Shown: piece after piece, positions 520 through 37,276 of the stretch
Position numbering within the stretch: the stretch's first letter is position 1
Layout: every line of letters begins with the position of its first letter
Virus record (IMG/VR): IMGVR_UViG_3300027719_000019
Location: 1 to 37,689 of that record
Source of the DNA: a virus
DNA: 37,689 nt
Reading direction: 5' to 3' (one strand)
Position numbers and translations under genes: made by a program
Notes under the pieces: model-generated
The model's input: the letters and a program-made list of their open reading frames with translations, nothing else
The model's database searches: none
Told to the model about the DNA's origin: nothing

Positions 520-1455
520 TCAATTACTTTCACAACCAACCCCGTCATGATTTCCATCGAAATTATGAGGGTCTGAACCTACGACCTGAAATCGGCGATA
601 GGGGATATCTTTGCAATCCAAGTCTGGTGGTGCCGGTGGTATGCAAACGGTTGGATAGGATGGATCGCAATTATTATTCGTGGCTGGTGCCTCCTTTGTG
701 GATATTGCCCTGGTAACCGGTGTTACTTCTTTTTGCAGTGCCCATAGGCCATACCCCATGGATGCCGCTCTTTGCTGACCATTCGCAAACAGATCCGCAC
801 AGGCTACGTCCGGGGGGTAGGTGGATGCATTGGCATACCCCAGGCGGACCAGTTCATAGTTGACCATTTTATTCCCCACAAGCACATAGCGGAGTAATCG
901 ACCGTATTGGTCCGTTTCAGACACGTCTTTGATCAGAATGACATCCTTATTCTCAACCAATGCGCGATTCTGGTCCGTTGCCTGCTCACCAAATTCTTCA
1001 TGCGTGGTGGTATCTTCCGGAGTGTCGATGCCGATATACCGGACGGTGAAATCCTGTCCACCGATATCAACGTGGATGGTATCCCCATCAACGATTCGAG
1101 TAACCTTTGCCGGTACGGACTGGGTATTGACAGGCAGGCATGGAAAAAGCTGATTGAGCGATGCTGTTTTAACTGCTGTTGGTACTGGCGGCGTTGGAGT
1201 ATCTGTTACTACAATTGGGGTTTGAGACAGGATTACCGCCAGTGTGCTGTGGTAGGTTGTCTCGTTGACGACCATTTTTATATCTGTCGGAGTTGTAATG
1301 CCACTCTGGGCAATTGGTAACTCAGTATTTGTGGGGGCCAAATCATCTGTATTTGAGGATAATAGGGCAGCTCCACCACCGCACATACATAACAATGCAA
1401 TGATGGCCAAACAACCTACTAAAATATTATTATTTTTTGACTTGGAATCAGACAT
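520..1455 (-). CDS. Membrane-anchored or secreted thermonuclease (SNase fold) with a C-terminal Excalibur Ca-binding domain
   Basis: The start is moved to ATG 1455 (AGGGGA upstream) because 1456..1509 lies in a repeated regulatory element. There is an N-terminal TM segment (ILVGCLAIIALLCMCGGGAALL). The SNase core reads VTRIVDGDTIHV...RYIGIDTPE...GRLLRYV...NYELVRLGYA. The C-terminus DCKDIPYRRFQVVGSDPHNFDGNHDGVGCE matches the Excalibur DxDxDGxxCE motif. Confidence 0.85.
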   Translation of the reverse strand: MSDSKSKNNNILVGCLAIIALLCMCGGGAALLSSNTDDLAPTNTELPIAQSGITTPTDIKMVVNETTYHSTLAVILSQTPIVVTDTPTPPVPTAVKTASLNQLFPCLPVNTQSVPAKVTRIVDGDTIHVDIGGQDFTVRYIGIDTPEDTTTHEEFGEQATDQNRALVENKDVILIKDVSETDQYGRLLRYVLVGNKMVNYELVRLGYANASTYPPDVACADLFANGQQRAASMGYGLWALQKEVTPVTRAISTKEAPATNNNCDPSYPTVCIPPAPPDLDCKDIPYRRFQVVGSDPHNFDGNHDGVGCESN

Positions 1456-1483
1456 AAAAAATCCCCTGAGTGCCGAAAAAATA

Positions 1484-1590
1484 GTAACACGTAACAGCAG
1501 TAACGGCATTTTGCATTAAATACCCATAGTACATAGTGTGGGGGTATTTAAAGGAATTATCTGTTACATCTGTTACCTGTTACAGAAATA
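1484..1590. promoter_or_regulatory. About 105-bp quasi-palindromic element, copy 1 (inverted copy at 13361..13475). It contains the upstream region of the nuclease gene.
   Basis: GTAACA x3 (1484-1506), stem TTAAATACCC (1516-1525) / GGGGGTATTTAA (1540-1551), then TGTTAC x3 (1561-1585). It aligns over its whole length with the reverse complement of 13361..13475. Confidence 0.65.
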
Positions 1591-1693
1591 CCCCTCATAC
1601 TGAGTATGATCCCCCTGGGATCGACCTATTTGGAGAGGTATAAATAATCTGTTGGTAAAGTTCAAAAACTCGTTGTCACCAATTTGTTATTTT

Positions 1694-1820
1694 TGAGCTG
1701 AGCAAATACTTTAAGTATTAAGCGAGTTTGTCCCATTTTTGCTGAGGAAATACTTTAAGTATTAAGGAAAAAAACGAGTTTAGGGATTTTTTTGCCAGTA
1801 AATACTTTAAGTAGTGTAGG
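1694..1820. repeat. 2.5 tandem units of about 45-52 bp, each carrying the palindromic site AAATACTTTAAGTA(TTAAG). These look like iterons or operators.
   Basis: Site copies lie at 1704..1722, 1748..1766 and 1800..1814. The flanks GCTGAG.. and ..CGAGTTT..ATTTTT..GC are also repeated. Confidence 0.75.
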
Positions 1821-2047
1821 GATCAATCAGAATTTACCTTAAAAAAGATAACTCTTGTGAACTGTCCGGAAAATTTTAATGGTATCGGAGGGTAAATATG
1901 GTTGTATTTCAGCTTTGATGGTTTATAGTATTCCACAAATAGTAGTGAGTTCTTATGGATAAGTTCCATTAATGACATATTGCAGAAATACTGAAAAGGC
2001 GATATAACTTTATTATCTAATAGAAAGGGTGTTCTAATGAACCAAAA

Positions 2048-2923: not shown

Positions 2924-2925
2924 CG

Positions 2926-3452: not shown

Positions 3453-3461
3453 GGAGTAGGG

Positions 3462-3875: not shown

Positions 3876-3881
3876 GAGTTT

Positions 3882-4655: not shown

Positions 4656-4665
4656 GAGGTGTACT

Positions 4666-5340: not shown

Positions 5341-5368
5341 TTTTTTCAGTAGATAACCTGAGGTGACC

Positions 5369-6145
5369 ATGACAACAGCAACGATAACCGCAGTGATCAT
5401 CGACAGCCGGGAACCCGACTGGGTTCAAAAACTCGCATTCGGATGCCCGTCATCGGTCACCATGCTGGATGCCGGGGATTTGCTGGCCGTGACCAGCGAC
5501 GGGCACATGATCTGCGCTGAACGTAAAACCCCGGACGACCTGTTATCCACCCTGCGAGACGAACGGCTGTTCCCGCAGATGCTGAAAATCTCCGAACAGC
5601 GCCACGTCCAATTGGAACAGGGACAACGGCCTACCTGGTGGCCTTACCTGGTCATCACCGGCGCACTGGGATGCAGCAAGGCGGGAAAGGTCATCACCCC
5701 GGAGCGTGGGGAAACCGGCTGGAGTTACAGCGCACTGATGGGGGCGTTGACCACTGCTCAGGAAATGGGGATTTTTATTGTGAATTGCGGGGGAGACAGC
5801 GAATATGCCCCCTCCATACTGAGTATAGGACGGCGCGACCGGGCGGATGTCCTGCCGATTCTCCCCGCACGCCAGGCGCTGGCACTGGGAGCAAAGGAGC
5901 AATTTCTGGCATCGTTACCCGGAATCGGGGTAGAGAAATCCATAGCCCTGCTGCAATGGGGCGGAGGGAGGTTGTCGGAGGTATTGGTCGGTTTGACAGA
6001 TTTGGACATTGCCTGCCCGGTTGAAGGGATTGGCAAAATCACCCGCGACCGGATCCGCGATTTTCTCGGTTTGAGGGGGAAATCCAAACTCGAATTTGTT
6101 ACCAACCAGAACGGTGAATCCGAACTGGTCAATATTTTCAACTAG
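5369..6145 (+). CDS. ERCC4/XPF-Mus81-type structure-specific endonuclease with a C-terminal helix-hairpin-helix
   Basis: Motifs VIIDSRE, DAGD and ICAERKTPDDLLSTL (the ERKxxxDL signature of ERCC4 domains), plus the HhH LASLPGIGVEKSIALL. ATG 5369 lies 5 nt after CTGAGG; an alternative GTG is at 5363. Confidence 0.8.
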   Translation: MTTATITAVIIDSREPDWVQKLAFGCPSSVTMLDAGDLLAVTSDGHMICAERKTPDDLLSTLRDERLFPQMLKISEQRHVQLEQGQRPTWWPYLVITGALGCSKAGKVITPERGETGWSYSALMGALTTAQEMGIFIVNCGGDSEYAPSILSIGRRDRADVLPILPARQALALGAKEQFLASLPGIGVEKSIALLQWGGGRLSEVLVGLTDLDIACPVEGIGKITRDRIRDFLGLRGKSKLEFVTNQNGESELVNIFN

Positions 6146-6163
6146 CGACAAGGAGATTTATTT

Positions 6164-6940
6164 ATGGAGACAGCATTAGCAACGCAGACCACTGGATCAA
6201 GCGCACTGGGGTTTCAACGTCAGTTAACCCCGCAGATGTGGCAGATGGTGATGGAATTATCTCCGATCATCTACAAAAGCCGTTTATTTGGGGTCAGCAG
6301 CCCGGAACAGGCCGCGGTGATCATGCTCAAGGGATTTGAACTGGGGATGGGACTGACCGCCAGTTTCGAGTTTGTCCAGGTTGTTCTGGGTAAGCCGGGA
6401 TTGTCCCCACGGGGAGCCCTGGCGCTGCTGGTCAATCATCCGGAAATCACAAAAATTGATGTCAAACGGTTGACCAAGACTGACGGCAGTTTCTACGGGT
6501 ACGAGTGTACGATGGTCCGAAAGAACGGATTCCAGTTCACCGCACAGTTCACGATGGATGACGCCAAACGGGCCGGAGTTGTGAAAGTAGATTCGGGCTG
6601 GGCAACCTACCCTGAAAACATGTGCCGATGGCGGGCAATCGGATTTGTGGCGGATATGGTCGCCCCGGATATCATTTGCGGTATGTCGGCCATGATGAAA
6701 ATGCCGGAAGAATATGGCGCAGCAATTGATGACAGCGGAAACATCATCGATGCCGTTGCGCAGCCTGCCTACACAACCCCGGCAGTCGTAGACGTGCCCC
6801 CACAGCAGCCGAAAATCAGCCTGGATGACCTGCTTTCCATGTTTGGAGCTGAGGCCATCCTGACAGCGAATGAAGGCAAAATTCCGGGGACGGATGACGA
6901 AATTGCAGCGGTTGCCGCAAAAATGGCCGGTGCAAAATGA
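6164..6940 (+). CDS. recT: RecT-family single-strand annealing protein
   Basis: AAGGAG SD. The core FELGMGLTASFEFVQVVLGKPGLSPRGALALL ... MDDAKRAGV...WATYPENMCRWRAIGF resembles RecT/Redbeta-type recombinases. It is coupled to the following exonuclease. Confidence 0.75.
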   Translation: METALATQTTGSSALGFQRQLTPQMWQMVMELSPIIYKSRLFGVSSPEQAAVIMLKGFELGMGLTASFEFVQVVLGKPGLSPRGALALLVNHPEITKIDVKRLTKTDGSFYGYECTMVRKNGFQFTAQFTMDDAKRAGVVKVDSGWATYPENMCRWRAIGFVADMVAPDIICGMSAMMKMPEEYGAAIDDSGNIIDAVAQPAYTTPAVVDVPPQQPKISLDDLLSMFGAEAILTANEGKIPGTDDEIAAVAAKMAGAK

Positions 6941-7707
6941 CCGCCCCAGCAATTGATCACCTAAGCTATTCCAGCATCACGTTGTATCTGGATTGTCCGG
7001 AAGCCTGGCGGCGCAAGTACATTCTCAAGGATCCGGTGAAATCCTCTCCAGCCCTGGTGGTTGGATCCGCGTTCCACGGCACGGTTGAGCGCCTGGTGCA
7101 GGTCACCGATGGGGATGTAGTCAAAATCTGGGATGAGGAATTCAAGAAAGCGACTGCGAAGGATGCCGTCGAGTGGGGTCTGGATACTCCGGAACAGCAT
7201 TACAACGATGGGCTGCGGATGCTGACTCACCCAACCATCAAAACCGCGATTGCCGATATCCACCCAGGGCAAGATGAAGCCGGGTACAAAATCGAACGCA
7301 AAGTGGAGCTGCGTGTTCCGGGCGTACCGATTCCGGTCATTGGTTACATCGACGCTATTCTGGATGACGGCACCCCGGCAGATTTCAAAACGTCCAAAAT
7401 GAGCTGGACAGAAGCAAAAGCCAGTGATTCACTGCAAACCCTGTTTTACCTGGCGGCGATGAACCAGATGGGAATTCCGGTCAACTGGAAATTCAAGCAC
7501 CTGGTGTTCGTGAAAACCAAGGAACCAAAGTTCCAGATGCTGGAACACAGCCACAAACCGGCTGAGATTTTCTTCCTGATGGATATCGTTGCCCGGGTAT
7601 GGAAGGCCATCGAGCTGGATGTGTACCCGATCAACCCGACCGGCTGGCGCTGTAACGAACAATACTGCGACTTTTTTGCCAACTGCAGGGGAAAGTATCA
7701 AAAATGA
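6937..7707 (+). CDS. PD-(D/E)XK (Cas4/RecB-like) exonuclease, partner of RecT
   Basis: The N-terminus SYSSITLYLDCPEAWRRKY, the GYIDAIL...ADFKTSK (D..D/ExK) core and the C-terminal Cys cluster WRCNEQYCDFFANC are typical of Cas4-like Fe-S nucleases. It overlaps recT by ATGA. Confidence 0.75.
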   Translation: MTAPAIDHLSYSSITLYLDCPEAWRRKYILKDPVKSSPALVVGSAFHGTVERLVQVTDGDVVKIWDEEFKKATAKDAVEWGLDTPEQHYNDGLRMLTHPTIKTAIADIHPGQDEAGYKIERKVELRVPGVPIPVIGYIDAILDDGTPADFKTSKMSWTEAKASDSLQTLFYLAAMNQMGIPVNWKFKHLVFVKTKEPKFQMLEHSHKPAEIFFLMDIVARVWKAIELDVYPINPTGWRCNEQYCDFFANCRGKYQK

Positions 7708-7938: not shown

Positions 7939-8811
7939 ATGCAACAAACAACGCTGTTTACCGTAGGGAAGTTTCAGAAAAATCAATGCAGCGTGCGGGT
8001 CGAAAATAATGGTCTGATTGTCAAAACCCCGTTCCACCGGGTTATGGTCGATATGATCAAAACCCTGCCGAGTACAGAGCGGCGGTTTGATCCGAATGAA
8101 AAATCGTGGGTGGTCAACCCGCGGCATGAGAACCTGGTGCTGAGCTGGATTGACGCCTATTTTGGCGAACAACCCATCGTGGAACGCTGCGCGGCAGTGT
8201 CGGGAATGCCCCAGTCCAGCATGAATATTTTAGAGGTCCATTATCTGGCCACCGCGAAAGATAAGGGTGGGGATGAACGGATTGCACTGGGCATGGACGC
8301 GGGGAATACCTGGTCGTTTGTGTTCCCCGAATCGGTCCTGCGGGCGTGGTTCTGTGCGGACACCAACCCGACCGAGGCACTGACACTGTACGGCCTGCTG
8401 GGTATCCGTCAGGATGCAGCTCCGGACGCGATCAAGGCGGCATACCGGCGCATGGCGTTGACCTGGCACCCGGACCACTGCAAGGAAATCAACGCGGCGG
8501 ATGTGTTCCTGCGGGTGAAGGAAGCCTATTCCATACTGAGTGACGCGGGGAAACGGGGGCGATATGACGCCGGACTGGCACTGGAACGCAGTCTGAACCG
8601 CAACAAACAGCAGGATACCGGCATCAACGATATCAGCGGTTACCGCGCCCCGCTGCGCTGCGGGATGATTCTGGCAGAGGGTGCGGTCAATCTGGGTAGA
8701 TTTCACGTTACAAAAATTTTAGCCTGGGAAGACATTATTAATGGTTTTGGCCAGACACTGGTCAGCAGCTGGGTGTACGGGGATAAAACCCCGACAAAGA
8801 TTTGGGCGTAA
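7939..8811 (+). CDS. J-domain (DnaJ-like, HPD motif) protein with unrelated N- and C-terminal regions
   Basis: ATG 7939 follows GGAGG. The J domain reads LYGLLGIRQDAAPDAIKAAYRRMALTWHPDHC...VFLRVKEAYSILSDAGKRGRYD. Confidence 0.8.
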   Translation: MQQTTLFTVGKFQKNQCSVRVENNGLIVKTPFHRVMVDMIKTLPSTERRFDPNEKSWVVNPRHENLVLSWIDAYFGEQPIVERCAAVSGMPQSSMNILEVHYLATAKDKGGDERIALGMDAGNTWSFVFPESVLRAWFCADTNPTEALTLYGLLGIRQDAAPDAIKAAYRRMALTWHPDHCKEINAADVFLRVKEAYSILSDAGKRGRYDAGLALERSLNRNKQQDTGINDISGYRAPLRCGMILAEGAVNLGRFHVTKILAWEDIINGFGQTLVSSWVYGDKTPTKIWA

Positions 8812-8821: not shown

Positions 8822-9307
8822 ATGGACTCGATGATGATTGATTCGGAGAAAGTAAACAAAGGGTTGGTTGCCCTGGTGGAATCGCTGAGCGCGTACATGG
8901 GTGTGGATGCTCGTGTGGAAACCCGCATGGTGGTGTTCAGTGCGTCCCCCGCATTACTCAGTATTGTAGGGCAGCTGGTAGGCAAGGATGAAATTGCGCC
9001 GGTTGTCCCCGCGCCTGAGCTGGTCCAGCCGGGGCCGCTGCAAAGCCGCATCCGGAAGGAACCGGTCAAGGTCGATGATCAGCCGGAATCTGATCGTCTT
9101 TGCTATTGCGGAAAACCCCTGCAGGGGAAAGCGAAAAGCTGCGGTGAACCAGAATGTGTCAAAAAGCAAAAAGCCGAGTACATGAAAAATTACTGGGCGG
9201 AATATTCGAAGAAGAACAAGCCCGGCAAAGCGGTTGAATCGGTCGAAAAAGAAGACGAAGACCCCGCCCCTTTCGACCCGTCCGAGAAAAAAGCAGGTCA
9301 ACCATAA
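8822..9307 (+). CDS. Hypothetical protein with a CxCGKP...CGEPEC zinc-ribbon-like segment and a Lys/Glu-rich tail
   Basis: ATG 8822 follows AAGGAG. It ends in ..SEKKAGQP* just after an A6 run (9287-9292). Confidence 0.65.
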   Translation: MDSMMIDSEKVNKGLVALVESLSAYMGVDARVETRMVVFSASPALLSIVGQLVGKDEIAPVVPAPELVQPGPLQSRIRKEPVKVDDQPESDRLCYCGKPLQGKAKSCGEPECVKKQKAEYMKNYWAEYSKKNKPGKAVESVEKEDEDPAPFDPSEKKAGQP

Positions 9308-11877: not shown

Positions 11878-13356
11878 ATGACACTGCTGAATACATTGTT
11901 GAATTCGGGGATACTGCCCCATGATGCACAGATTCTGGCCAACGAGTTTGGATCCGTGCCCGAGGATCTGTTCCTGGACGGGTTGGAGACGATTGCCCGG
12001 CGCCTGGCGTTCAATGAGCCACCCGGGCTGGTCGTTCCCCCGTCCGAGCCATGGGCGACTGTCCACCAGTCTATGCTGCTGATCGGAGACCCGGAAACCG
12101 CGTTTCTAACCGCGCTGGCAACCTGGTCAACCCCGGTACAGGTGGCGCTGAGCGGAGCGGTCAACGTGCGCAAGCGGGATCTGCTGGCATGGCAGAATCA
12201 ATCCGCATTACAGCCTGGCAAGCGCAAAAAGACAGCGGATTACCTGAAAATCATGCGCAATCTGGGTTATAAATTTGCAACGAACATCTGCACCAACGAT
12301 ATCGAGGTGAACGGCGAACCGATCACCGACAGCCGGGCAGCAGAAATTCGGGGCAAGTTACGAGATGCTGGAGTATGGGAGGTAAACGTGGCTGAAGATG
12401 TATATATGGCGGACGCCTGGCAGCACCGCTATCATGCGATTAAAAATTACCTGATGGGTCTAAAATTCGAGGGGGGAGACCCGATTACCGAGGTCGGCAA
12501 TTGTTTCCAGGACGAGTACGGCATGTTCCAGACATGGCTGCGCCGGTGGTTAATTGGCGCTGTGGCGCGGGTGATGGCAGGGGAGCAAAACCGGGTGCTG
12601 GTCCTGGACGGTGCCCAGGGTATCGGCAAAGACTATTTTGCCCGCTGGTTATGTTCCAGCCGGTCGGAATATTTCTACGAGGGACCAATCATGCCGGATG
12701 ATAAGGACTGCCGGTTACGGCGCATGTGGACGTGGATCTGGGATGTGACCGAGTTCGGAGCCACCAGCCGACGGGCGGACCGCGACGCGCTGAAGGCATT
12801 TATTACTACTCAAGAAGTTCGGGACCGCAAACCCTACGGACGGTACGATATCCGGGGGACGGCAATGAGTTCGTTTGTGGGAACGGTCAACAACGAGATC
12901 GGCATCTTGACCGACCCGACCGGCAACCGGCGATTCATGATCTCCCATCTACTCAGTATTGATTGGAGCTACACCCGGATTGATGTGGATCAGCTCTGGG
13001 CGCAGGCCTACGAACTGTACATGAGCGGGGAATCGTGGAACCTGGTGGGCGCTGAGCTTGTCCGGGCGGAGGAAATTAACGAATACTACCAGACGGTGGA
13101 CGTGGTCGAGGAGACGATCAAAAAACTGTTCACGATTGACCCGGCCAACACAACCACCTGGTTGAGTACGGTGGATATTCTCGAAACCCTCAAAGACCCG
13201 ATTCGGGGCAATCTGCGGGCGGGGACTGAGGTGGACGCCAGACGGTTAGCGGCTGCATTAACCAAGATGGGGTTGGGGAAGCCTGGCCAAAGAAAGGTTA
13301 ATAGTCAGATTGTTAGAGGCTATTATGGTATTCAGAAAATGCCAACTATCCCATAG
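11878..13356 (+). CDS. VirE / P4-D5-type P-loop NTPase (putative SF3 replicative helicase)
   Basis: Walker A VLVLDGAQGIGKDYFARWL and Walker B-like WTWIWDVTEF. The 492-aa size and the position next to the primase support the call. Confidence 0.65.
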   Translation: MTLLNTLLNSGILPHDAQILANEFGSVPEDLFLDGLETIARRLAFNEPPGLVVPPSEPWATVHQSMLLIGDPETAFLTALATWSTPVQVALSGAVNVRKRDLLAWQNQSALQPGKRKKTADYLKIMRNLGYKFATNICTNDIEVNGEPITDSRAAEIRGKLRDAGVWEVNVAEDVYMADAWQHRYHAIKNYLMGLKFEGGDPITEVGNCFQDEYGMFQTWLRRWLIGAVARVMAGEQNRVLVLDGAQGIGKDYFARWLCSSRSEYFYEGPIMPDDKDCRLRRMWTWIWDVTEFGATSRRADRDALKAFITTQEVRDRKPYGRYDIRGTAMSSFVGTVNNEIGILTDPTGNRRFMISHLLSIDWSYTRIDVDQLWAQAYELYMSGESWNLVGAELVRAEEINEYYQTVDVVEETIKKLFTIDPANTTTWLSTVDILETLKDPIRGNLRAGTEVDARRLAAALTKMGLGKPGQRKVNSQIVRGYYGIQKMPTIP

Positions 13357-13360
13357 AGAA

Positions 13361-13475
13361 AGGATTTGGTTAACAGGTAACAGCATTAACATCAAATTCC
13401 ATTAAATACCCCTACAGTATATAGGGTGGGGGTATTTAATGCAAAATGCCGTTAATGCTGTTAACCGTTACCTTT
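13361..13475. promoter_or_regulatory. About 105-bp quasi-palindromic element, copy 2 (inverted relative to 1484..1590). It is the upstream region of the primase gene.
   Basis: GTTAACAGGTAACAGCATTAAC, then ATTAAATACCCC (13401-13412) / GGGGGTATTTAAT (13428-13440), then GCAAAATGCCGTTAATGCTGTTAACCGTTAC. The 42 nt proximal to each gene differ at only 3 positions between the copies. Confidence 0.65.
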
Positions 13476-13490
13476 TTAGGAGCTGAAATT

Positions 13491-14408
13491 ATGACGATTT
13501 ATCAACAAGCCTTAAGTTTTGTCCTGTGCGGCATTGGTGTTATCCCGGTGCGGTATAAGGATAAGAAACCCGATCTAAGCAAAATACCTGGGTGGGAGGC
13601 CTATAAAACTACCCTGCCAACACAGGCGGAATTGGAACAGTGGTTTTTGCACTCGCAGTTAAATAACTACGGAGTTTTAGCTGGTTGGACCGGGTTGACG
13701 ATTTTGGATTTTGACGACGCCAGTGAATATCTGCGCTGGCAGTCATGGTGTACGAAAGTGGGCGGGCAGGCTGGTTATGTTTCCCGGTTTGCGTTTCAAG
13801 TTTTGACCAGTCGGGGAGTGCATGTGTATATCCGTCTCCCACACCAAGAACGAAACCGAAAACTTGGTGATAAAGGCAAACTTGAAATCAAAGCAAATGG
13901 GTATGTTTTAGGCCCAGATTCAACCCACCCAAGCGGAGCGGTTTATACGCCATTGCGGGATGTATGGAATTTTCCGATGGTGGACGCGCTGAGTGATGTT
14001 CTTCCAACGGCATTGTTGATTCAGGATGCGGCAAAAGTAACCAATACTCAGTCACAACCGGCAGCTCCAGCTCAGCCGGTGGATCCATGGGCGGCGGCGA
14101 TGAACCCGAAACTGTATTCGACCAAAAACAGCAGCAGCGGGGATGACCTGGTGACGACCATCCGCAAGCATTTCAAGTGTGAGGATTTTTTGGCTGATAT
14201 GCGCCAGAGTGGATCTCACTGGATGGTGGGGTTGTGTCCGCTGCATGATGACCAGTCGTCTTCTTTCTGGTTGGACACGCAGAAACAAATCTGCGGGTGT
14301 TTTGCGGGGTGTACGCCCAAGCCGTTGGATGTGATCAACCTGTACGCCAGGCTGAACGGGTTGACGAATGTGGATGCGATTCATGCGTTGGGGATGCTGT
14401 TACCCTAA
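13491..14408 (+). CDS. Bifunctional primase-polymerase (prim-pol) with a C-terminal CHC2 zinc finger
   Basis: ATG 13491 lies 8 nt after AGGAG. Motifs are GIGVIPVRYKDKKP..GW, ILDFDD, SRGVHVYIRLP and THPSG, followed by CPLHDDQSSSFWLDTQKQICGCFAGC (DnaG-type CHC2). Confidence 0.8.
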   Translation: MTIYQQALSFVLCGIGVIPVRYKDKKPDLSKIPGWEAYKTTLPTQAELEQWFLHSQLNNYGVLAGWTGLTILDFDDASEYLRWQSWCTKVGGQAGYVSRFAFQVLTSRGVHVYIRLPHQERNRKLGDKGKLEIKANGYVLGPDSTHPSGAVYTPLRDVWNFPMVDALSDVLPTALLIQDAAKVTNTQSQPAAPAQPVDPWAAAMNPKLYSTKNSSSGDDLVTTIRKHFKCEDFLADMRQSGSHWMVGLCPLHDDQSSSFWLDTQKQICGCFAGCTPKPLDVINLYARLNGLTNVDAIHALGMLLP

Positions 14409-14449
14409 TACTGAGTAGGTAAAAGTCCGAACTGAAAATGAGGTATTTT

Positions 14450-20502: not shown

Positions 20503-20635
20503 GACCGACAAAGGAGATCTCAGGACAGAGACGCTGCTGAAACAAGAGACGAGATCAGTATAGCACGGGGGGCAAGGGAGGCTCAAGGGAATGAGATTAG
20601 GATCATAATTGGACACATCCCTTACAGCCCATGTT

Positions 20636-20679
20636 ATACTGAGTATATAACTGAATAGGGAATTTGGAGTTTACCGCCC
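20636..20679 (+). promoter_or_regulatory. Late promoter B (TATATAAC region overlapping an ATACTGAGTAT motif) plus the conserved leader box GGGAATTTGGAGTTTACCGCCC
   Basis: The box at 20658-20679 matches 15017-15038. A -10-like TATATA/TATAAC lies at 20644-20651. Confidence 0.55.
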
Positions 20680-23063: not shown

Positions 23064-24020
23064 ATGGGTTTGTATCCAAAAAATCTGAATGAATATGTGG
23101 CTTCCATGGGTATCCCGCGGGGGCCGTTATCGAAAGTCTACCTGGTAGACCCGGTCAACGGGTCCGACAGCAACAGCGGCACGAACTGGGGGGCACCCCT
23201 TAAGACGTTGACCGCGGCTGAGGATCTGTGTGTTGCCGACCGGCATGACGTTGTTTTGTTCCTGGCCGGTGACACTGCGGATAACCCCGCGGCTGCCATT
23301 GCCTGGGACAAAGATTACACCCACCTGATTGGCGTTGGCTGTGAGTTACCCGGTGTTGGCCAACGCTGCCGGGTTGTGGGCACCTCCGCGCTGGACCTGA
23401 GCCAGGTGATCACCGTCAGCGCCAACGGCTGTATTTTCAAGAACATCCAGTTCTACAACGGAAACGACGCGGCTGCCGATTCAGGCGCTGCCATTGTCTC
23501 CGGGGGCCGGAACCTCTTTGAAAATTGCTTTTTTGCCGGTATGGCCCATGCCACTCCGGGCGCGCGGGCGGGCTGCTACTCGCTGAATGTCAGCGGGGAG
23601 GAAAACGTATTCAAGCGCTGTTCGATTGGTCTCCAGACCATCATCCGCGCCCAGGCCAATACTGAGCTGCTGATCAGCGGCACTGCATGTTATCGCAATA
23701 AATTCATCCAGTGTGAACTCCTGAGCTGGTCCGTGACTGCCGGAAAACTGCTGGTGAAATTCGCAGCTGCTTCTGTGCCGTGGACTACCCAGTTTGAGGA
23801 CTGCCTGTTCAACAATCTGGACATGAGCGCAGGCGGGGCGGACGGCGCGAGCATCGATAACGCATTTGGCGACAGTTCGAGCGCAAAACACCAGGTGATT
23901 CTGCGCGGCAAAAACCAGTTCGTTGGTTGCACCGGCGTTGCCGATACGCTGACCAACATCTGGAGCGCTGAACCTGTACCGGCAACCGGATTCGGTATCT
24001 CGGTCAACCCGGCTGCTTAA
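23064..24020 (+). CDS. Right-handed parallel beta-helix (pectate-lyase-like) repeat protein
   Basis: The N-terminus VYLVDPVNGSDSNSGTNWGAPLKTLTAAEDL..DVVLFLAGD is followed by repeated hydrophobic/Gly/Asn rungs (..NGCIFKNIQFYNGN.., ..NLFENCFFAG..). Confidence 0.6.
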   Translation: MGLYPKNLNEYVASMGIPRGPLSKVYLVDPVNGSDSNSGTNWGAPLKTLTAAEDLCVADRHDVVLFLAGDTADNPAAAIAWDKDYTHLIGVGCELPGVGQRCRVVGTSALDLSQVITVSANGCIFKNIQFYNGNDAAADSGAAIVSGGRNLFENCFFAGMAHATPGARAGCYSLNVSGEENVFKRCSIGLQTIIRAQANTELLISGTACYRNKFIQCELLSWSVTAGKLLVKFAAASVPWTTQFEDCLFNNLDMSAGGADGASIDNAFGDSSSAKHQVILRGKNQFVGCTGVADTLTNIWSAEPVPATGFGISVNPAA

Positions 24021-24834: not shown

Positions 24835-25223
24835 CGTTTGATGAGCGTACCCTGACATGGATGCGAGCAGCGCAAACAACCCACATGCAGGACGAGTGTT
24901 ACCTGGTGCGGTTTGTGGAGACAGGCGCAATCGATGCCTGGGGACAGCCGATCATGACCAACACAGAGACCTACAGTCAGTGCGGGTTGAAACTACGACG
25001 GAGCTGGAGCGGGATGGGTGATGCGCAAGTTGAAATGATCGACGGAGAATTGCGGCTCCCCTCCAATACTGAGTTATCACAGATTGACCATGTACGGGTT
25101 ATCCGGCGATATGGCGAGGATCCAGCGCAAGAGCTGACGTTCGAACTGGCCGGTGAACCCAAAGCGGGGCCGACCGGTATCCTGGTGGATGTACGCTACC
25201 GAGGCAGGACAGGAGCGGTGTGA
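24831..25223 (+). CDS. Head closure / head-tail adaptor protein
   Basis: ATGA overlap and conserved gene order. Confidence 0.5.
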   Translation: MTFDERTLTWMRAAQTTHMQDECYLVRFVETGAIDAWGQPIMTNTETYSQCGLKLRRSWSGMGDAQVEMIDGELRLPSNTELSQIDHVRVIRRYGEDPAQELTFELAGEPKAGPTGILVDVRYRGRTGAV

Positions 25224-27437: not shown

Positions 27438-27697
27438 ACGAACTGGCACTATCCCAATGGGGGCGGTGGGCTGATGAACTGGATCCAATCGAGGTCACAC
27501 AGCTCACCGCTGCTTATATTCGCAGGACGCGATTTGAGGCATCCATACTGAGTATAGAGGTGGTCAAGGCATTGAGTCTGGCGTTGGATGGTTCGGGGGG
27601 CGGGGTGAGTGAAACTTCGCGCCCTTCGATGAACTCAGGGAGCGAAAGACGGGTCAGCGCGGCAGAATTTTTGAGAGAAACGCGGAGGCGATCATGA
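27051..27697 (+). CDS. Tail assembly chaperone G-T fusion made by a -1 programmed frameshift at C CCT TTT (27386..27392)
   Basis: The -1 frame is open from 27377 to TGA 27695-27697 and has no start of its own. It encodes WRDLSPDWPTEAADLDELALSQWGRWADELDPIE... and its stop overlaps the tape-measure ATG. Confidence 0.7.
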
Positions 27698-29639: not shown

Positions 29640-32600
29640 GAGCCATACTGAGTGAGGAACTGGCGAAATTGCGGGCGGATGGGCAATTCAGCAAGCTCTA
29701 TCTGGCCATTCACGAACCGGTGACGGTATTCAGCGCACGAGTCAACCAGACGTTCAGCAGCGTGGATAATGTGACTCAGGTGACGTATGACGGGGGTGTG
29801 GGCACGATTGCGGATGTTCTGGCTGGCATGACGCTGTGGGTGGGTTCTGCGTCCGGAGGGCGAGATTTGGGCGAGTGCCGGATCCGCAAAGCCGGGGATG
29901 CCACTACTCTGTATATTGGGGCGACCAGTGATATTGCCTGGGCGGATAACCTGTACCTGACTGTGGTGGATGAGTTCGGGTTGTGGGCCAAACGGGCGGT
30001 ATTGACCGGCGATTTTGATTATTTGATGGATGAGGATATTGCCTACAGCAACCAGCATGAGGTGCGTGACCCAGTAGTTGTGATGGGCGCACCGGCTGCG
30101 GGGTTCACGTCTCCCAGCGCAGACACGGAGGTTAACCCATACCGGCCAGATTGGACTGGAGCGGTTTACAGTGGAAACTGGTACGGATACTACTGGGCCG
30201 GATTTACCTACGATGATACCGGCTGGCGGAGCGATTACGTTGGCGAGAGTGTGAGCATCCGCTTCTACGGCACCCAGTTTGCGGTGGTGTACTGGGCCTA
30301 TACCGGAGGGACGCGGGGTAAGTTCAGCGTGTACATCGACGGTGCCTTTATCGAGGAAGTAGATTGCAGCACCTCAGCCGGATTGGAGACGTGGACGAGC
30401 GCAGCGATGACTGCCGGTTGGCACACGGTGCAGCTGGTCCACAGTGCGCTGCCGTCGATTTTTATTGACCGCTACATCCTGACCGAATCTATCTGGACGC
30501 TGGATATCGCCTGGGACGCCAGTGAGAGTCACGCACCGGGCAGCAGCGTCAGCAGTTATGCCTGGTCCGCACCTGGCGCACTGACCACCAGCGGGAGCGG
30601 GGCAACCTTTACCAGCCGATACCGAACGGCAGGCACCTACCGGGTGCAGTGTACGGTAACAGCGGCCAACGGGGCCAGTTCCACCGGCACACGGTTTGTG
30701 TTTGTATATGATTCAACCCATCCGCCTGTGACGGATTTTGAGGTGAATACGATTGCGGGCAACCGGGATGACGGCGGCTGGTATGCGGATCTCCGCCTGC
30801 ACCAGTCGGCAACAGTGCGTGAGGGGGCGTTATGCGTGTTGTTTGCGGAGGACTGGTACGGCACATCTGCCGGCAGTCTGGGACCGGTGAGCGGGCGTGA
30901 AAACGTGCTGATGTGGGGATGGATGCACACTGGAGGCGTGGAGCTGAGCGCGGACGGTGGCCGGGCGAAAATGCGAATCGAGGGACCGGCAGCGCGGATG
31001 GAACGTCTCGGTCAGCAGCCGGTGTGGATCCGCGATTTCTATTCGGTCGAGGGGGATGACGGCGGCGGGGTACGGTGGACGCGGTTCACCAACCTAAAAA
31101 TTGATGACTACATCTGGCACCTGCTGCACTGGCGGTCCACAGCAGACGCGATTTTTGACGTGATTTTGAGCGGCGATACGCGGGTGGTGGAATCGTTGTC
31201 CGAGAACGGTACACTGGCTGAGAAGGTCAAAAACGTGTGTCAAAAAATCCTTGCTGAGCCGATTTGCGACCGGTACGGACGGCTGTATATCTCCCTGCAG
31301 GCGCAATACCTGGAGAGCGCTGATCGCGCCAGTCTGCCGGTGGTGATGGATATAACCACTGCCGATTGGAGCCGTCTGGATATCAACGAGGCGAATGACC
31401 CGATCAGCGCGATTGAAGCCGAGGCTACTCAGTATGACGGGGGGATTCACCAGGTGATGGCCAGCCGGGCGGCAGGCGAAACGCTGAAACGGTGCGGGCC
31501 GGTGGAGACGGAATCTAACCTGGTTGTCAGTGACCAGACCCAGTTGAATCAGTTGAGCGGTCACCTGTTAGCCCGAAAAAATGGGGTCCACGGTCCCGTC
31601 AGTGCGCAGCTGGAGGAAAACAACCGGTTTGTTGATATTGCCCCGGCAGGGTACGTGCGAATCAGCCTGGCAGCCGGTGACACCCCCGCGGGGAGCGTGT
31701 GGAGCAATCAGAAATGTCTGGTTCAGCGGGTGGAGTTCGTATTTGACCCGGATTGCGGGAACCTGTCTACGGCCCTGGAACTGGAGGCAGAAACCATTGG
31801 TGTGCCCGGTGTGACCATCGACCCACCGCAGGAAGATTTGCCGCTGGAGACCGGAATTGATTTGCCGGAGTTGGATGATTTCCCGATGTGGCCAGGGTAT
31901 CCGGGAGATGGGGGCACGGAGCCATATATTCCGGAGGACTATCCGGAGCTGGGAGTCTGTAAAACCGATCCGACCGCTGCCGGAAATGGGCCGTACCGGG
32001 TGTGGATTGTGGGGGAAGCGACTTCGACCGACCGATACAGCCGGGTTGGTCCGTTTGCGTGCTGGGTGCGGGCGGATGAGGCAGATAACCCGACACGCTA
32101 CAGCATCCACGGGCGGTTTTTAACCCGGGATACCAGTGGAACCAGCATTGGCGGCTGGACTGAAACCATGGATGATGACTGGTATGAGGTCTACGGACTG
32201 GACGCCAGCAACAACCGGGTTGCACATGCGGTTAAGGATGCAGTAACAATTGCCGGATTGCGGACGGGGGTACTGGTCAGTGACGGCGGGGCCGGGGTGG
32301 ATATCGTCCGGCTGGAGATTGCCGTCACGGCTGAGGATTTTGATTGTACGGCTGTGGCGGACGCCGGGCAGTATATCGGCAAGTGGCGCGACCATACCAC
32401 GCCCGGAACGTTTGGATATGCACTGGCCGGGAACTATGCCTATGGAACCATTGCTAACGCGACCTATGGGACGAATGGAGCAGATGAGGATTGGCTGGAT
32501 GCGAGTTTTGCAATTGATTTTACTTTTAGCGAACGGGCAGCGCTGTTTCGATGGTATGACGTAAAAATGTTGTTACATACCAATTCGGACGATTGGCCCG

Positions 32601-35229: not shown

Positions 35230-35241
35230 ATAGAGGTAACA

Positions 35242-35511
35242 ATGGCAACTCAACAGCAAAAATCGGATCATGTAACCCGGGTACGGCAGGAAACAACCAA
35301 CCTGGCCAATGCGATCGGGAGACTACGAATCCTTAAGATGAAATATGATGCTCAGGGTTTAGAAATCGACCTACAGGATATCGATATCATCGGTGAAAAT
35401 TTTGGAATCAGCGCACAGGATATCAAGGATGCCTATGTTGCAATTGCATTGATTGAAAAAGCGCTTTCCTCCGGAGGCGAGGAGGCCCTGTTGAAGGTTG
35501 TGATGTCATGA
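35242..35511 (+). CDS. Hypothetical soluble protein (89 aa) between the fiber and the endolysin
   Basis: AGAGG SD. It has no TM segment, so it is not a holin. Confidence 0.5.
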   Translation: MATQQQKSDHVTRVRQETTNLANAIGRLRILKMKYDAQGLEIDLQDIDIIGENFGISAQDIKDAYVAIALIEKALSSGGEEALLKVVMS

Positions 35512-36401
35512 GAGCAAAACTGATTGATATCTCAACTCACCAGGACGATTCAGATACACCGGCCAAATTTGATTTTAGCAAACCGCGTTCATACGATGTG
35601 AATGGAATCATCATCCGCACCGGTCACGGGATGGTCAAGGACGCGGACTATGAATATTATTACCGGGATGCAAAGGCAGCCGGTTATTACCTGGGCACGT
35701 ATCACTTCGATGACTATGATGTGAATCTGGAAAAACAGGTGTTCACGATGCTGGCGGCGATGGAAGGCAAAGCGTTTGACCTACCTCCGGCGTGGGACAT
35801 CGAGGATAGCAGCCAGCCGTTCCACGCTACCCAGACGTTCGCCTTATCCCGTGCCAAGGGCTTTTTCGCCATCGTTGAGCCGGTTGTCCGCAAAATCTGT
35901 GTCTACTATATGGGCGCTTCGATGATCCGCTGGTTGAAGCCGGTGCCCGGTTTTCTCCGGATGCGGCGCGGGTGGCCTGCATGGTATCCGAAGCGACCGG
36001 CTGGCAATCCGTTTGGCTGGATGGAAACCCATAAGGGACCGGATACGGGCGGGGTGCCGTGGTGGTTGTGGCAGGGCTCAGCTAAGGGGAACGGATTCGG
36101 GGCAGCGATGGGCGCGGACGGGAGCGCGGATATCGACTGTGACGTGAGTTCATTGCCCTATACTGAGTTTTACGAGGACGCTGCTCAGACGATTGTGTAT
36201 CCGGATTACCGACCGGCGAGAATCAAAACCAGTGGATCGTTCGTCCGGGTGCGGAAAACGCCACAGTTTGGTGATAACATCTGTTACTCATTGTTAAACA
36301 ATACCCGGGTCAATGTGTTCGGGGAGAGTAACGGATTCTATAAAGTTGATTTCCTGGCATCCGAGTGGGTGCACGGGTCGGTACTCAGTATAGGATTATG
36401 A
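35508..36401 (+). CDS. Endolysin: GH25 muramidase plus a C-terminal SH3b-like wall-binding domain
   Basis: The N-terminus KLIDISTHQDD...NGIIIRTGHG...DYEYYYRDAKAAGYYLGTYHF fits GH25. The C-terminus ARIKTSGSFVRVRKTPQFG...NGFYKV is SH3-like. Confidence 0.75.
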   Translation: MRAKLIDISTHQDDSDTPAKFDFSKPRSYDVNGIIIRTGHGMVKDADYEYYYRDAKAAGYYLGTYHFDDYDVNLEKQVFTMLAAMEGKAFDLPPAWDIEDSSQPFHATQTFALSRAKGFFAIVEPVVRKICVYYMGASMIRWLKPVPGFLRMRRGWPAWYPKRPAGNPFGWMETHKGPDTGGVPWWLWQGSAKGNGFGAAMGADGSADIDCDVSSLPYTEFYEDAAQTIVYPDYRPARIKTSGSFVRVRKTPQFGDNICYSLLNNTRVNVFGESNGFYKVDFLASEWVHGSVLSIGL

Positions 36402-36409
36402 TCATAATT

Positions 36410-37276
36410 TTATAGATGCCAGTTGTCCGCTGGTGATGAGCGCCGGTGCGCAGATTCAAGGTCTGATTGAGAAATCGCCAGGTATCTGCGCACCATCGTT
36501 AAATCGTTATGTCCCAGCAGCATTTGCAGTTCAAAAATGTTGCCGCCGTTGCGTAAAAACTCTATGGCAAACGTGTGGCGGAATCGGTGCGGGTGGATGT
36601 TTGTTATGCCAGCCCGTTTCCCGATGCGGCGCAGAATGTTGCGGAGTTGATACCGATCTAAGATTGTATTGTCGCGAGTGGAGATCAATGGATCTGTTGG
36701 GGTTACATCCCGGGTATGGATGTATTTCCAGAGTGCCAGGCGGGCGGATTTTCCTAAACGGGCAACCCGGCCACGGGATTTTTTTCCGGAGTGAAACGGT
36801 TTTACCAGGATAGATCCTGTTTCAATATCTAAATCATTGATCGTCAGACGGGATACTTCTGACACCCGCAGCCCTGAATCCAGCAGCAACAAGACAAGAG
36901 CCTTATCGCGTGCAGATTTGCACGATTTGACAATTTTACTGATTTCAGCCTGGGCGAACGGCAAAATTGCCTGATTTGGGGTTGCAGGCATTGGAATGTT
37001 ATCCACCCGTTCTATACTGAGTTCCTTACTGGCCCAGTTGAAAAATGATCGGATAACCTTCCAGTAGACCTGAACAGTGGATTCAGTTCGACCGTTATCC
37101 CTGAGCGATTGGAGGTAGCCGATCAGCTGTTCGCGGGTGATTTGTTCGAGGGGTGGATTGTCCAGCTGCACGGCAATATTTTGCAGACGCTGGGCATAAT
37201 ATTTTGCTGTTATGGGAGAATAGGCTCCGTTTGCCATTTCCATGGAAAAACCATCAATAGCATCTAAGAATTTCAT
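36410..37276 (-). CDS. int: Tyrosine recombinase / integrase (XerC/D-like, 288 aa)
   Basis: AAGGAG SD. There is a SAM-like N-domain. Catalytic motifs are LDSGLRVSE (R), HPHRFRHTFA (HxxR) and LLGHNDLTMVRRY (H..Y). Confidence 0.9.
   Translation of the reverse strand: MKFLDAIDGFSMEMANGAYSPITAKYYAQRLQNIAVQLDNPPLEQITREQLIGYLQSLRDNGRTESTVQVYWKVIRSFFNWASKELSIERVDNIPMPATPNQAILPFAQAEISKIVKSCKSARDKALVLLLLDSGLRVSEVSRLTINDLDIETGSILVKPFHSGKKSRGRVARLGKSARLALWKYIHTRDVTPTDPLISTRDNTILDRYQLRNILRRIGKRAGITNIHPHRFRHTFAIEFLRNGGNIFELQMLLGHNDLTMVRRYLAISQSDLESAHRRSSPADNWHL

Follow-up and report, generated by a model that had tools for sequence, protein, structure and literature searches.

Dispersed copies of a phage-specific DNA motif are linked to a VapE-PrimPol replication module and may be primase recognition sites

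The 37,689-nucleotide stretch of viral DNA analysed here as a whole (IMG/VR record IMGVR_UViG_3300027719_000019, hereafter the window) carries 17 exact copies of the 9-mer ATACTGAGT, 11 on the + strand and 6 on the - strand. The motif acts at the DNA level, is absent from the flanking host DNA, is linked to one clade of primase-polymerases (PrimPols) and changes its preferred strand at the gap between the VapE-like helicase and PrimPol genes. We interpret the copies as putative primase recognition and priming sites in cis, signals where the phage primase would start DNA synthesis. Based on comparative sequence analysis, we give this reading a probability of about 0.5. The genome is that of a complete, circular temperate siphophage with a unique length of 37,562 bp; the 127-bp terminal repeat in the window stems from circular assembly. 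Integration is at a tRNA-Val, and the most likely host is a member of the Anaerolineaceae (Chloroflexota).

ATACTGAGT is the top-enriched k-mer of the window. Dinucleotide shuffles predict 0.09 copies and a third-order Markov model 0.20, corresponding to an enrichment of ~85-fold over the latter. As a codon-aware null we used 1000 synonymous shuffles that kept protein sequences and codon usage and left non-coding DNA unshuffled. This yielded 0.23 expected coding copies compared with 13 observed; the total under this null, 4.23, includes 4 unshuffled non-coding copies. The number, positions and strands of the copies given in a preliminary description of this DNA are all correct, and the enrichment that it proposed to check against codon-shuffled and Markov nulls is real. 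The density is ~0.5 per kb, or ~1 per 2 kb, with gaps of 0.2-4.7 kb over 37.6 kb, and the 17 sites are spaced slightly more evenly than random (P about 0.05).

Between 13 and 14 of the 17 sites are intragenic. Read in sense they encode ILS (three copies) or xTEx (five), and in antisense LS(I/M) (six) or TQY (one). Since several frames are used and relatives have other amino acids at the orthologous codons, the constraint lies on DNA and not on protein, as had been suggested. On the left of the genome, a - strand copy (1320..1328) lies in sense orientation within the SNase-domain gene 520-1509(-), in frame xTEx. The + strand copy at 1597..1605 is non-coding and, like those at 5816..5824, 18628..18636, 20636..20644 and 27545..27553 (all +), represents the full 11-mer ATACTGAGTAT, confirming the five such copies counted earlier. 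The copy at 5816 falls in the ERCC4 nuclease gene in frame ILS, where relatives encode VLR or LTR. A copy in the DnaJ-domain gene (8533..8541, +, ILSD) is the sole position common to relatives (L011, L014, L206); otherwise positions turn over between relatives and are not conserved. Antisense copies are found in gene 8822-9307 (8956..8964, -), in the VapE-like helicase gene (12951..12959, -), where relatives have different residues, and in gene 21534-22094 (21809..21817, -). The copy at 14408..14416 (+) was correctly placed on the primase stop codon: it begins at the final base of that codon, 21 nt 5' of gene 14438. In the structural region, 18628 lies in a MuF-like gene (frame HTEY) and 25066..25074 (+) in gene 24831-25223 (NTEL), while 20636 is non-coding, 5' of the head-gene block. 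The latter had been assigned to the -10 region of a late promoter; a consensus scan gives no + strand sigma-70-type promoter there. Copy 27545, between 27437 and 27694, lies outside the simple ORF list and probably falls in a frameshift extension of the tail chaperone. The gene for a 1106-aa tail protein has one copy at its start (29645..29653, +, ILS) and one in antisense (31427..31435, -, TQY). The remaining copies lie in the GH25 endolysin gene (36160..36168, +, YTEF), near its 3' end in antisense (36383..36391, -), and antisense to the integrase gene 36410-37276(-) (37014..37022, +).

Comparison of ~60 related loci shows that ATACTGAG-Y-A is conserved together with a C-rich stretch upstream of it (-9..-3), and that the motif occurs in dialects. 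The C-rich 5' flank noticed earlier is evident in the window, where G is absent at -1, -2 and -4 and C occupies 9-12 of 17 copies at -2 and -5..-7. In two pooled sets of 146 and 538 sites, positions -9..-3 are 33-53% C and depleted in G, and the C-rich flank persists even in phages of 40% GC. Directly 5' of the core, pyrimidines are strongly preferred in the window but only weakly in the pooled sites. Motif density is stable over GC contents of 40-64%. The quasi-palindromic shape first attributed to the motif is incidental to the dialect of the window phage: relatives keep ATACTGAG-Y-A with its asymmetric flank, and no palindrome is formed by the C dialect ATACTGAGCA. Two C-dialect copies, ATACTGAGC, occur in the window at 21700..21708 and 23659..23667 (both +). 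The one-mismatch variants listed previously do exist, but the one given at 14045 begins at 14044, and there are extra ones at 386 and 29906. The three tandem sites reported at 1704-1814 are present as AATACTTTAAGTATT palindromes at 1705, 1749 and 1801, but it is unproven that they are related to the motif.

The motif belongs to the phage. In six related prophages, compared on both sides of their tRNA-integrase junctions, we found 24 copies in 65.6 kb of prophage and 1 in 58.2 kb of host flank (P = 1e-8), a ~20-fold fall in density across the junction. At other Anaerolineae loci there is no enrichment (19 copies versus 25 expected in 835 kb). Equal density in the host chromosome, which the preliminary description had named as grounds for abandoning a phage-specific role, is therefore not observed in these flanks. 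A host-wide signature merely shared by the phage, such as an uptake sequence or HIP1-like repeat, would fit a 9-10-mer present on both strands, intragenic, at about 0.5 per kb and with dialects, as in DUS/USS. Given the host-side counts, the motif is not such a signature, and we regard this explanation as extremely improbable.

Within the phages, the motif follows the replication module. Of the terminase relatives, the 11 loci with an upstream PrimPol homologue include 8 that are enriched, and the 38 without one include none (Fisher 4e-7). L013 and L017, which are just as close by terminase but lack the module, also lack the motif. When IMG/VR was sampled by PrimPol alone, 42 loci with full-length homologues were obtained; ~33 of them are ATACTGAG-enriched, whatever their terminase or capsid type, and most of the remainder have a TAC[T/C]GAG dialect. 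Across these loci the motif does not track terminase or capsid genes. The three closest PrimPol homologues in a metagenome collection that partly overlaps IMG/VR are enriched as well (P <= 2e-6). Around other zinc-ribbon primases (643 kb) the 7-mer is not enriched, with 33 copies versus 78 expected. One locus (L005) is not enriched despite a window-like PrimPol with intact ribbon and VapE. Linkage alone cannot single out PrimPol because all genes of the module are co-inherited.

The PrimPol (13446..14408, +) combines an archaeo-eukaryotic primase-polymerase domain with a DnaG-type CHC2 zinc ribbon. Both Pfam matches exceed the cut-off (Prim-Pol 55.7 bits, Zn_ribbon_DnaG 30.3 bits), and against the PDB the N-terminus resembles pRN1 ORF904 (1e-16) and the C-terminus the DnaG zinc-binding domain (4e-10). 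In DnaG, the zinc-binding domain reads the template. The DxD, H and CHC2 residues are invariant. Its partner, a VapE-like (D5/P4-type) helicase (11878..13356, +; Pfam VapE-like_dom 2.8e-37), is encoded next to the PrimPol gene in relatives too. The motif is missing in L034, the sole relative whose ribbon is canonical DnaG-like, and in L302, the sole one in which CGC of the ribbon is changed to GGC; the only two with ribbon FGC (L322, L323) use the dialect CTACTGAGTA. Overall, dialects do not correspond cleanly to ribbon subtypes.

The gap between the two genes contains an ori-like element (13357..13470) of GTTAAC/GTAAC repeats around the hairpin CATTAAATACCCC...GGGGGTATTTAATG, and clustered iterons occupy this gap in seven relatives. 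A second ori-like element at 1500..1600, with hairpin CATTAAATACCC...GGGGGTATTTAA and three CTGTTAC iterons, is directly followed by motif copy 1597, 12 nt 3' of the iterons. In the pooled loci the motif switches strand at the VapE-PrimPol gap, from +96/-111 on the left (46% +) to +187/-82 on the right (70% +; p = 5e-7). The switch is retained when only + strand genes are counted (80/100 left versus 160/74 right, p = 1e-6), has the same direction in 16 of 19 loci (Wilcoxon 4.5e-4) and draws on several reading frames, whereas control 7-mers of the same composition give 54% versus 57%. It is stronger in loci without a window-type terminase match (20/34 versus 58/15, p = 1e-6). Polarity is incomplete (about 70:30) and weakens at distances over ~4 kb from the origin; in the window alone it is a trend only (8+/2- versus 6+/4-, p = 0.6). 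The switch puts the motif on the template for the lagging strand, with its C-rich 5' flank on the side a primer would copy.

Together, linkage to the PrimPol/VapE module and the strand switch at the origin point to a role in replication instead of silencing. We propose that the C-rich stretch at -9..-3 with ATACTGAG-Y-A may be the cis-acting replication signal of a module of VapE-like helicase, PrimPol and iteron origin. The PrimPol zinc ribbon would recognize ATACTGAGYA on the single-stranded lagging-strand template, and priming would start at the motif copies, with the primer beginning just 5' of this word, so that copying the C-rich flank would give a G-rich, stable primer. Because a recognition word this long hardly arises by chance, selection would have to maintain the copies, presumably keeping one per 1-3 kb wherever proteins tolerate it, on both strands, with the preferred strand being the lagging-strand template for forks leaving the origin. 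Two further points speak against a primase: to our knowledge, known primases read 3-5 nt, so that a requirement for 8-10 nt would be unusual, and the polarity would be equally expected of a Chi-like element.

A duplex-DNA binding array for another phage protein, serving silencing or immunity, chromosome organisation or self-marking, appears unlikely. Dispersed, asymmetric, phage-specific sites with lineage dialects do resemble cluster A stoperators (PMC9283540), the module encodes several small zinc-ribbon and unassigned proteins, and the tandem palindromes at 1705-1815 share the ATACT/AGTAT half-sites. However, the sites are mostly intragenic, 59 of 145 (about 40%) are antisense to transcription, and they travel with the module for lytic replication and not with the immunity region, whose CI/Cro operators (TACGAC-N3-ATCGTA at 2510-2564) differ in sequence. 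With positions also turning over, the stoperator analogy drawn earlier is not supported. Many motif-rich loci lack g75 (14438-14665), one of the small zinc-ribbon proteins, and a silencer predicts no strand switch at the origin. The switch is better accommodated by a Chi-like, fork-polar recombination or nuclease-control signal that protects or processes replication and packaging intermediates, read by a helicase-nuclease or by ERCC4/RecT/PDDEXK. We nevertheless consider this rather unlikely. Its density is within the Chi range, about 70% of copies are on leading-strand sequence as in bacterial Chi, and genes for an ERCC4 nuclease, a RecT-like annealing protein and a PDDEXK exonuclease (5363..7707, +) lie in the same module. 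Yet a host RecBCD/AddAB signal should enrich host DNA, contrary to the flank and Anaerolineae counts, and the phage encodes no helicase-nuclease. Moreover, a motif-rich locus with PrimPol and a VapE-like gene (L311) has no detectable RecT/ERCC4/PDDEXK in the 5 kb upstream, and the C-rich flank is left unexplained.

That the copies are unselected footprints of molecular drive is decidedly doubtful; such a drive could, for example, be PrimPol DNA primers of preferred sequence that stay in the genome, or short-patch repair biased towards turning near-matches into the motif. Positions turn over quickly, overriding amino-acid sequence, fork polarity is compatible, and the motif is linked to PrimPol, an enzyme class that can prime with dNTPs (PMC8718748). 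The even spread and the density maintained across GC contents look instead like selective maintenance, in L005 and L302 the enzyme is present but the footprint is not, and no such drive is documented. Packaging recognition sites of the small terminase are very improbable. Among close terminase relatives the motif initially appeared to go with the Terminase_2-type small subunit, and L005, with another small-terminase type, has none, but PrimPol-sampled loci are motif-rich without a window-type TerS or TerL match. Packaging is also unidirectional and predicts no strand switch, which in loci without such a match is in fact the more pronounced.

Chi and KOPS are 8-mers enriched genome-wide with ~70-75% skew to the leading-strand sequence relative to the origin. 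The window motif shares the enrichment and the skew, but Chi and KOPS are host chromosomal signals for host enzymes, whereas it is lacking in host flanks and linked to a module of the phage. DUS/USS and cyanobacterial HIP1 are likewise 8-12-mers on both strands, intragenic and with lineage dialects; they are, however, properties of whole host genomes. Cluster A stoperators (L5, Bxb1, TipsytheTRex) also comprise >20 dispersed, asymmetric, lineage-specific sites with subgroup variants (PMC9283540, PMC6550527), but they are located in promoters and short gaps between genes, always point in the direction of transcription and correspond to the operator of the immunity repressor, none of which applies here. 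Among primases, the PrimPol of phage NrS-1 has a recognition sequence, 5'-TTTGGTTA-3'. This enzyme is without a zinc finger, reads via a helix-bundle domain and also accepts GTG; its 8-mer was suggested to mark a specific start instead of being scattered, and genome-wide enrichment or strand polarity is not described in that paper.

The gp4 sites of T7, 5'-(G/T)2GTC-3', are similar in that a zinc ribbon reads a template word, the 5' flank serves as template for the primer and the lagging-strand template is used, with a few dozen usable sites per about 40 kb genome (PMC12839067, PMC2910064). That the zinc-binding domain of T7 reads the template is described in PMC12839067 and PMC5517523. With 3-5 nt, the T7 word arises often by chance. 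T7 therefore needs no genome-wide enrichment, and none is reported, in contrast to the 8-10 nt word of the window, with its strong enrichment and dialects. The catalytic domains also differ, archaeo-eukaryotic PrimPol here and Toprim in T7. T7 uses fragments of 1-6 kb and about 14-26 active sites, with a split of 19 and 7 between the two strands (PMC12839067), and the 17 sites in 37.6 kb of the window are comparable, a density that supports the primase reading.

A preliminary description of the window had reported 17 copies of the 9-mer ATACTGAGT (11 on +, 6 on -), and all of these positions and strands were confirmed. Dinucleotide shuffles predict 0.09 copies and a third-order Markov model 0.20, and the word is the most enriched in the window among all lengths from 6 to 11. 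The enrichment also holds against a codon-aware null. Permutation of synonymous codons, with proteins and codon usage kept, yields 0.23 coding copies compared with 13 observed; the 4 non-coding copies are unaffected by this treatment. The set of one-mismatch variants needed minor correction, as one starts at 14044 and not at 14045 and two further copies are found at 386 and 29906. Thirteen of the 17 exact copies lie within called genes (14 if a probable frameshift ORF is counted), 6 of these 13 are antisense, and copies are read in five combinations of frame and orientation. When oriented, they share a C-rich 5' flank without G at -1, -2 and -4 and are usually followed by A. Copies are spaced by 2.2 kb on average with gaps of 0.2-4.7 kb. 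This is slightly more regular than chance placement (P = 0.05, CV 0.64), the largest gap being 4.7 kb where 7 kb is expected.

The same word occurs in many terminase relatives from IMG/VR, some of which carry the sister dialect ATACTGAGC(A). Using 146 sites from 18 phages we obtained a consensus consisting of a C-rich stretch (-9 to -3), ATACTGAG, Y (T 87, C 57) and A (105/146). The flank is the same in an independent set of 538 sites that includes phages of 40% GC. The quasi-palindrome first described was not supported, as the palindromic look of ATACTGAGTAT is limited to the T dialect. At codons orthologous to the window sites, motif-bearing relatives encode other residues (ILSI vs VLRL or LTRL; LLSI vs MLDV or IKHI), and the J-domain site 'ILSD' is the only site position common to the window and its relatives. 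Copy number is kept while positions are not, and protein sequence gives way to the motif. A scan of IMG/VR with the 14-mer CCATACTGAGTATA returned single, apparently chance matches, with three relatives among the matches listed. The idea of a separate dispersed word for each relative was discarded, as the frequent 9-mers of the relatives L005, L021, L034 and L059 are local clusters; the L034 cluster lies at an apparent origin, as does one of the two L005 sites. The latter (L005:8153-9914 and 5969-6124) comprise five copies of GTCGTAACA in the VapE-PrimPol gap and eleven of TAACGGCAG just upstream of a small terminase of another type, the second cluster being possibly a pac site. Among these four and L038, a terminase relative without PrimPol homologue, an unrelated dispersed word was found only in L038, where the 8-mer AAAACGCG occurs 15 times on both strands of L038:1-21416.

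The first and last 127 bases of the window are identical (1-127 = 37563-37689, exact direct repeat), indicating a circular assembly and a genome of 37,562 bp. The same contig is present in Logan run SRR10466901 and pieces of it in two JGI metagenomes, while GenBank phages gave no megablast match to 20 kb of it. The phage is a temperate siphophage. Its XerD-like integrase (36410-37276, - strand) lies beside the attP, a nearly complete tRNA-Val(TAC) (37355-37429, - strand) in which the acceptor stem is disrupted at the first two bases. Among related integrases, the tRNAs used are Val, Pro, Gly and Glu. The CI-like repressor gene (2048-2476, - strand) is divergent from a cro-like gene. Between the two lie its own operators, two 22-bp repeats ACxATACGACGAxATCGTAGTA (2510-2531 and 2543-2564) with the palindromic core TACGA-N5-TCGTA. 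They probably serve immunity and show no relation to the dispersed motif. The genome further encodes a recombination set (ERCC4, a RecT-like protein and a PDDEXK nuclease), a DnaJ-domain protein, terminase, portal, MuF, capsid and tail proteins and a GH25 lysin. Replication genes include a VapE-like helicase (11878-13356) and a PrimPol fused to a DnaG-type CHC2 zinc ribbon (13446-14408), with both Pfam families above cut-off. The enzyme matches ORF904 (1e-16) and the DnaG zinc-binding domain (4e-10) in the PDB and has the make-up of its class, a Prim-Pol catalytic domain with DxD and H motifs plus a CHC2 zinc ribbon. Residues D88, D90, H126, C264, H267 and C285 are invariant and C289 nearly so.

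Other repeats were observed in the window. A 14-bp palindrome ATTATGATCATAAT stands at the ends of gene blocks, at 14897-14910 (after gene 14662-14922) and 36395-36408 (lysin/integrase gap), with a partial copy at 20601. Three tandem palindromes AATACTTTAAGTATT (1705-1719, 1749-1763 and 1801-1813; spacing 44 and 52 bp) lie in a 540-bp AT-rich non-coding stretch and contain the ATACT/AGTAT half-sites of the motif with a 3-bp spacer. GTGTACG has 11 sites between 6505 and 34429, all on the + strand, compared with ~2 expected on both strands together; codon usage for Val-Tyr may lie behind this one-strand excess, or GTGTACG may be another polar word. TGATCA is over-represented across the whole window with 32 sites, i.e. 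64 counted on both strands vs 26 expected. HIP1 (GCGATCGC) is absent.

The motif is linked to a replication module of VapE-like helicase, PrimPol and the gap between them. Among terminase relatives it is found only where a PrimPol homologue lies upstream (8/11, vs 0/38 without; Fisher 4e-7). The module is missing from two equally close terminase relatives, and so is the motif; structural modules vary among motif-rich phages. A second sample of IMG/VR loci was collected by PrimPol alignment alone, whatever their terminase; single-protein queries with PrimPol and VapE had given no matches, the alignment query succeeded for PrimPol. About 33 of the 42 loci with full-length PrimPol homologues are significantly enriched for ATACTGAG, and most of the remaining ones carry a dialect, namely ATACCGAGCG, CTACTGAGTA, TTACTGAG or TACTGAGCG. 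Close PrimPol homologues from a metagenome collection were enriched in 3/3 cases. The metagenome scan otherwise returned mostly unrelated zinc-ribbon primases, which served as negative control: 643 kb around them contain 33 copies of the 7-mer vs 78 expected. There are three exceptions. The motif is absent from L034, which has a canonical DnaG-like ribbon, and from L302, in which the ribbon CGC is changed to GGC; L005 has a window-like, apparently intact enzyme, yet no motif enrichment. L322 and L323, with the ribbon variant FGC, use the CTAC dialect, and no simple correspondence between dialect and zinc-ribbon subtype was found among the compared loci. A small zinc-ribbon protein, g75 (14438-14665), was rejected as reader: many motif-rich loci lack it and the motif-poor L005 has it. 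In one PrimPol locus (L311:64-6058) an HNH endonuclease ORF immediately precedes the intact PrimPol and itself starts with a second copy of the PrimPol N-terminus; two DNA methyltransferase genes lie further upstream. Within the window, no DNA methyltransferase was detected among scanned proteins of the early, immunity and replication regions or among precomputed Pfam calls from 5.7-27 kb. On the basis of this negative result in the proteins covered, the motif was dismissed as a methylation or modification target.

In seven relatives the VapE-PrimPol gap is filled by clustered inverted iterons whose sequence differs from phage to phage, an arrangement that, judged by sequence, is typical of an origin. 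The 90-bp gap of the window holds an ori-like element (13357-13470) in which a hairpin is flanked by GTTAAC/GTAAC repeats. A related element (1500-1600) has three CTGTTAC repeats, with the motif copy at 1597 directly after. Both show a hairpin CATTAAATACCC(C)...GGGGGTATTTAA(TG) plus GTTAC/GTTAAC repeats, a pair that we take to recall ori/crr of P4. A motif copy beside the iterons is not a consistent feature, and the copies just inside the PrimPol gene correspond to a conserved peptide, LPTE. Since this peptide encodes the core, the PrimPol gene was excluded from strand counts, for which non-redundant loci were pooled and the origin was inferred from the iterons.

The preferred strand of the motif switches at this origin. 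We counted 96 +/111 - copies to the left and 187 +/82 - to the right (46% vs 70% +; p = 5e-7), and + strand genes alone give 80/100 and 160/74 (p = 1e-6). The direction of the shift agrees in 16/19 loci (Wilcoxon 4.5e-4) and the shift is fed by several reading frames, while control 7-mers of the same composition show 54% vs 57%. In loci without a window-type terminase match the shift is stronger (20/34 vs 58/15; p = 1e-6). The window alone (8+/2- vs 6+/4-) follows the direction of the pooled trend, without significance. As the + strand is the lagging-strand template of a right-moving fork, the motif with its 5' C-rich stretch preferentially lies on the lagging-strand template of both forks. 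In the broader view, it is likely that the motif serves this replication module in cis, as a signal with fork polarity.

Primase recognition sites are a known kind of signal; DnaG, like T7 gp4, reads a template word with its zinc-binding domain and the primer is copied 5' of it. For T7 gp4, reading of a short template word and copying of the primer from the bases 5' of it have been described (PMC2910064, PMC12839067), and T7 has Okazaki fragments of 1-6 kb, with about 14-26 sites active (PMC12839067). By analogy, the PrimPol zinc ribbon would read the word on the lagging-strand template, C-rich flank then core. Priming there would copy the 5' flank and produce a G-rich primer. Four features fit this geometry: an asymmetric word with a flank on the copied side, its place on the lagging-strand template, Okazaki-scale spacing and its link to a PrimPol with DnaG-type ribbon. 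We put the probability that PrimPol reads the word and primes at it at about 0.5, the pattern itself being a direct observation. A requirement for 8-10 nt would also account for the need of selection to maintain the word and for its absence from host DNA. More speculatively, the ribbon might demand an 8-10-nt word throughout a large clade of temperate phages whose hosts are Chloroflexota and perhaps others; the word would be written genome-wide at Okazaki spacing and override protein sequence. Such a private 'priming code', dialect-evolving and origin-polar, would confine priming to phage DNA and spare the host chromosome.

In species-representative genomes, relatives of the integrase come almost exclusively from Anaerolineae, the best being from Bellilinea caldifistulae GOMI-1 (54% identical). 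Each immediately follows a tRNA gene, the mark of the boundary between prophage and host, and over its 3' 60 nt the window tRNA-Val has the same sequence as the tRNA at the GOMI-1 junction. Three prophages found via integrase are identical or close to PrimPol-module phages (L088 equals L325; L212 is 91% identical to L006 and L215 74% to L011). The preliminary description had held that equal density in the host would make the motif a host signature. In DNA flanking the junctions, which stands here for the host, density is not equal: across six loci with a motif-carrying prophage, ATACTGAG occurs once in 58.2 kb on the host side and 24 times in 65.6 kb on the prophage side (P = 1e-8), and the 7-mer 3 and 41 times. 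Other Anaerolineae loci (835 kb) contain 19 copies vs 25.5 expected. The near-absence from host flanks identifies the motif as a property of the phage and makes a host signature hardly credible. A host-wide iterated sequence such as DUS/USS uptake or HIP1-like repeats would need a host-wide density that is not seen as far as the flanks show; host Chi was likewise rejected, with no enrichment in host flanks. At one junction (L088:1-9523) a second, lower-GC phage-like region across the same tRNA-Val has 1 motif copy in 9.5 kb vs 7 in 10.9 kb of the PrimPol-module prophage. In a Chloroflexia MAG (MFD03804.bin.2.16), the flanking host DNA (L236:1-9800) has ~20 copies of another word, ACGGCCGT(G/C); as this word is also present on the prophage side, it is a genuine host-wide repeat there.

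A silencer or organiser that binds the sites as duplex would account for dispersion and dialects. It is nonetheless unlikely, because intragenic placement in two orientations, linkage to a lytic module and origin-centred polarity do not fit. The suggested precedent, the cluster A stoperators, to which the repressor binds and so blocks elongation, differs in every respect compared: these lie in promoters or short intergenic gaps while 13/17 copies here are intragenic, they are oriented strictly with transcription while 86 sites in the 18 phages are sense and 59 antisense, and they repeat the operator of the immunity repressor, from which the motif differs (2510-2564), so that it was also rejected as a CI operator. 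A Chi-like signal shares the polarity, as Chi sites are skewed relative to replication direction like the motif (46% vs 70% +, p = 5e-7). Chi sites are, however, enriched in the host genome, where RecBCD/AddAB of the host reads them; the motif is not enriched in the host flanks and has no such reader, which makes this reading unlikely. A non-selected footprint of priming or repair appears improbable. Terminase sites (small-terminase pac) are very improbable, contradicted both by the PrimPol-sampled loci and by the switch in loci without a window-type terminase match.

Literature searches with the motif strings gave only unrelated sequence matches such as primers and did not find the word itself reported, nor did we find a paper combining Anaerolineae, prophage and primase. 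No long, enriched, dialect-forming and origin-polar primase site tied to a PrimPol with DnaG-type ribbon is known to us. If PrimPol is the reader, genome-wide selection for so long a primase recognition sequence would be without precedent, as would discrimination of self from non-self at the priming step. An 8-10-nt priming word kept every 1-3 kb at the cost of the phage's own proteins would mean that coding sequence across a whole genome can be moulded by lagging-strand initiation. Sequence alone would then suffice to locate the origins and the direction of forks in phages not yet cultured, natural enzyme/word dialect pairs would allow studies of how zinc ribbons read DNA, and sequence-specific DNA primases could serve as tools. 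Should another protein read it, the motif would still be a previously unreported, lineage-specific marker of this phage group and of its prophages in Anaerolineae genomes. The prophage-bearing Anaerolineae include two cultured strains, B. caldifistulae GOMI-1 (contig NZ_LGHJ01000016.1, prophage beside tRNA-Val) and Ornatilinea apprima P3M-1 (NZ_LGCL01000045.1), in which the question is testable.

Compared with established primase sites, word length is the main difference. By current understanding 3-5 nt suffice for primases, and genomes have no need to adapt to them, whereas here 8-10 nt plus flank are conserved; the 8-nt site of NrS-1 is the only precedent we found for so long a word. In three respects the motif resembles primase sites. 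It co-occurs with a primase bearing a template-reading domain, except in L005, L302 and L034, it prefers the lagging-strand template with a switch at the origin in the pooled loci (window alone 8+/2- vs 6+/4-, not significant), and its mean spacing of 2.2 kb falls within the 1-6 kb of T7 Okazaki fragments.
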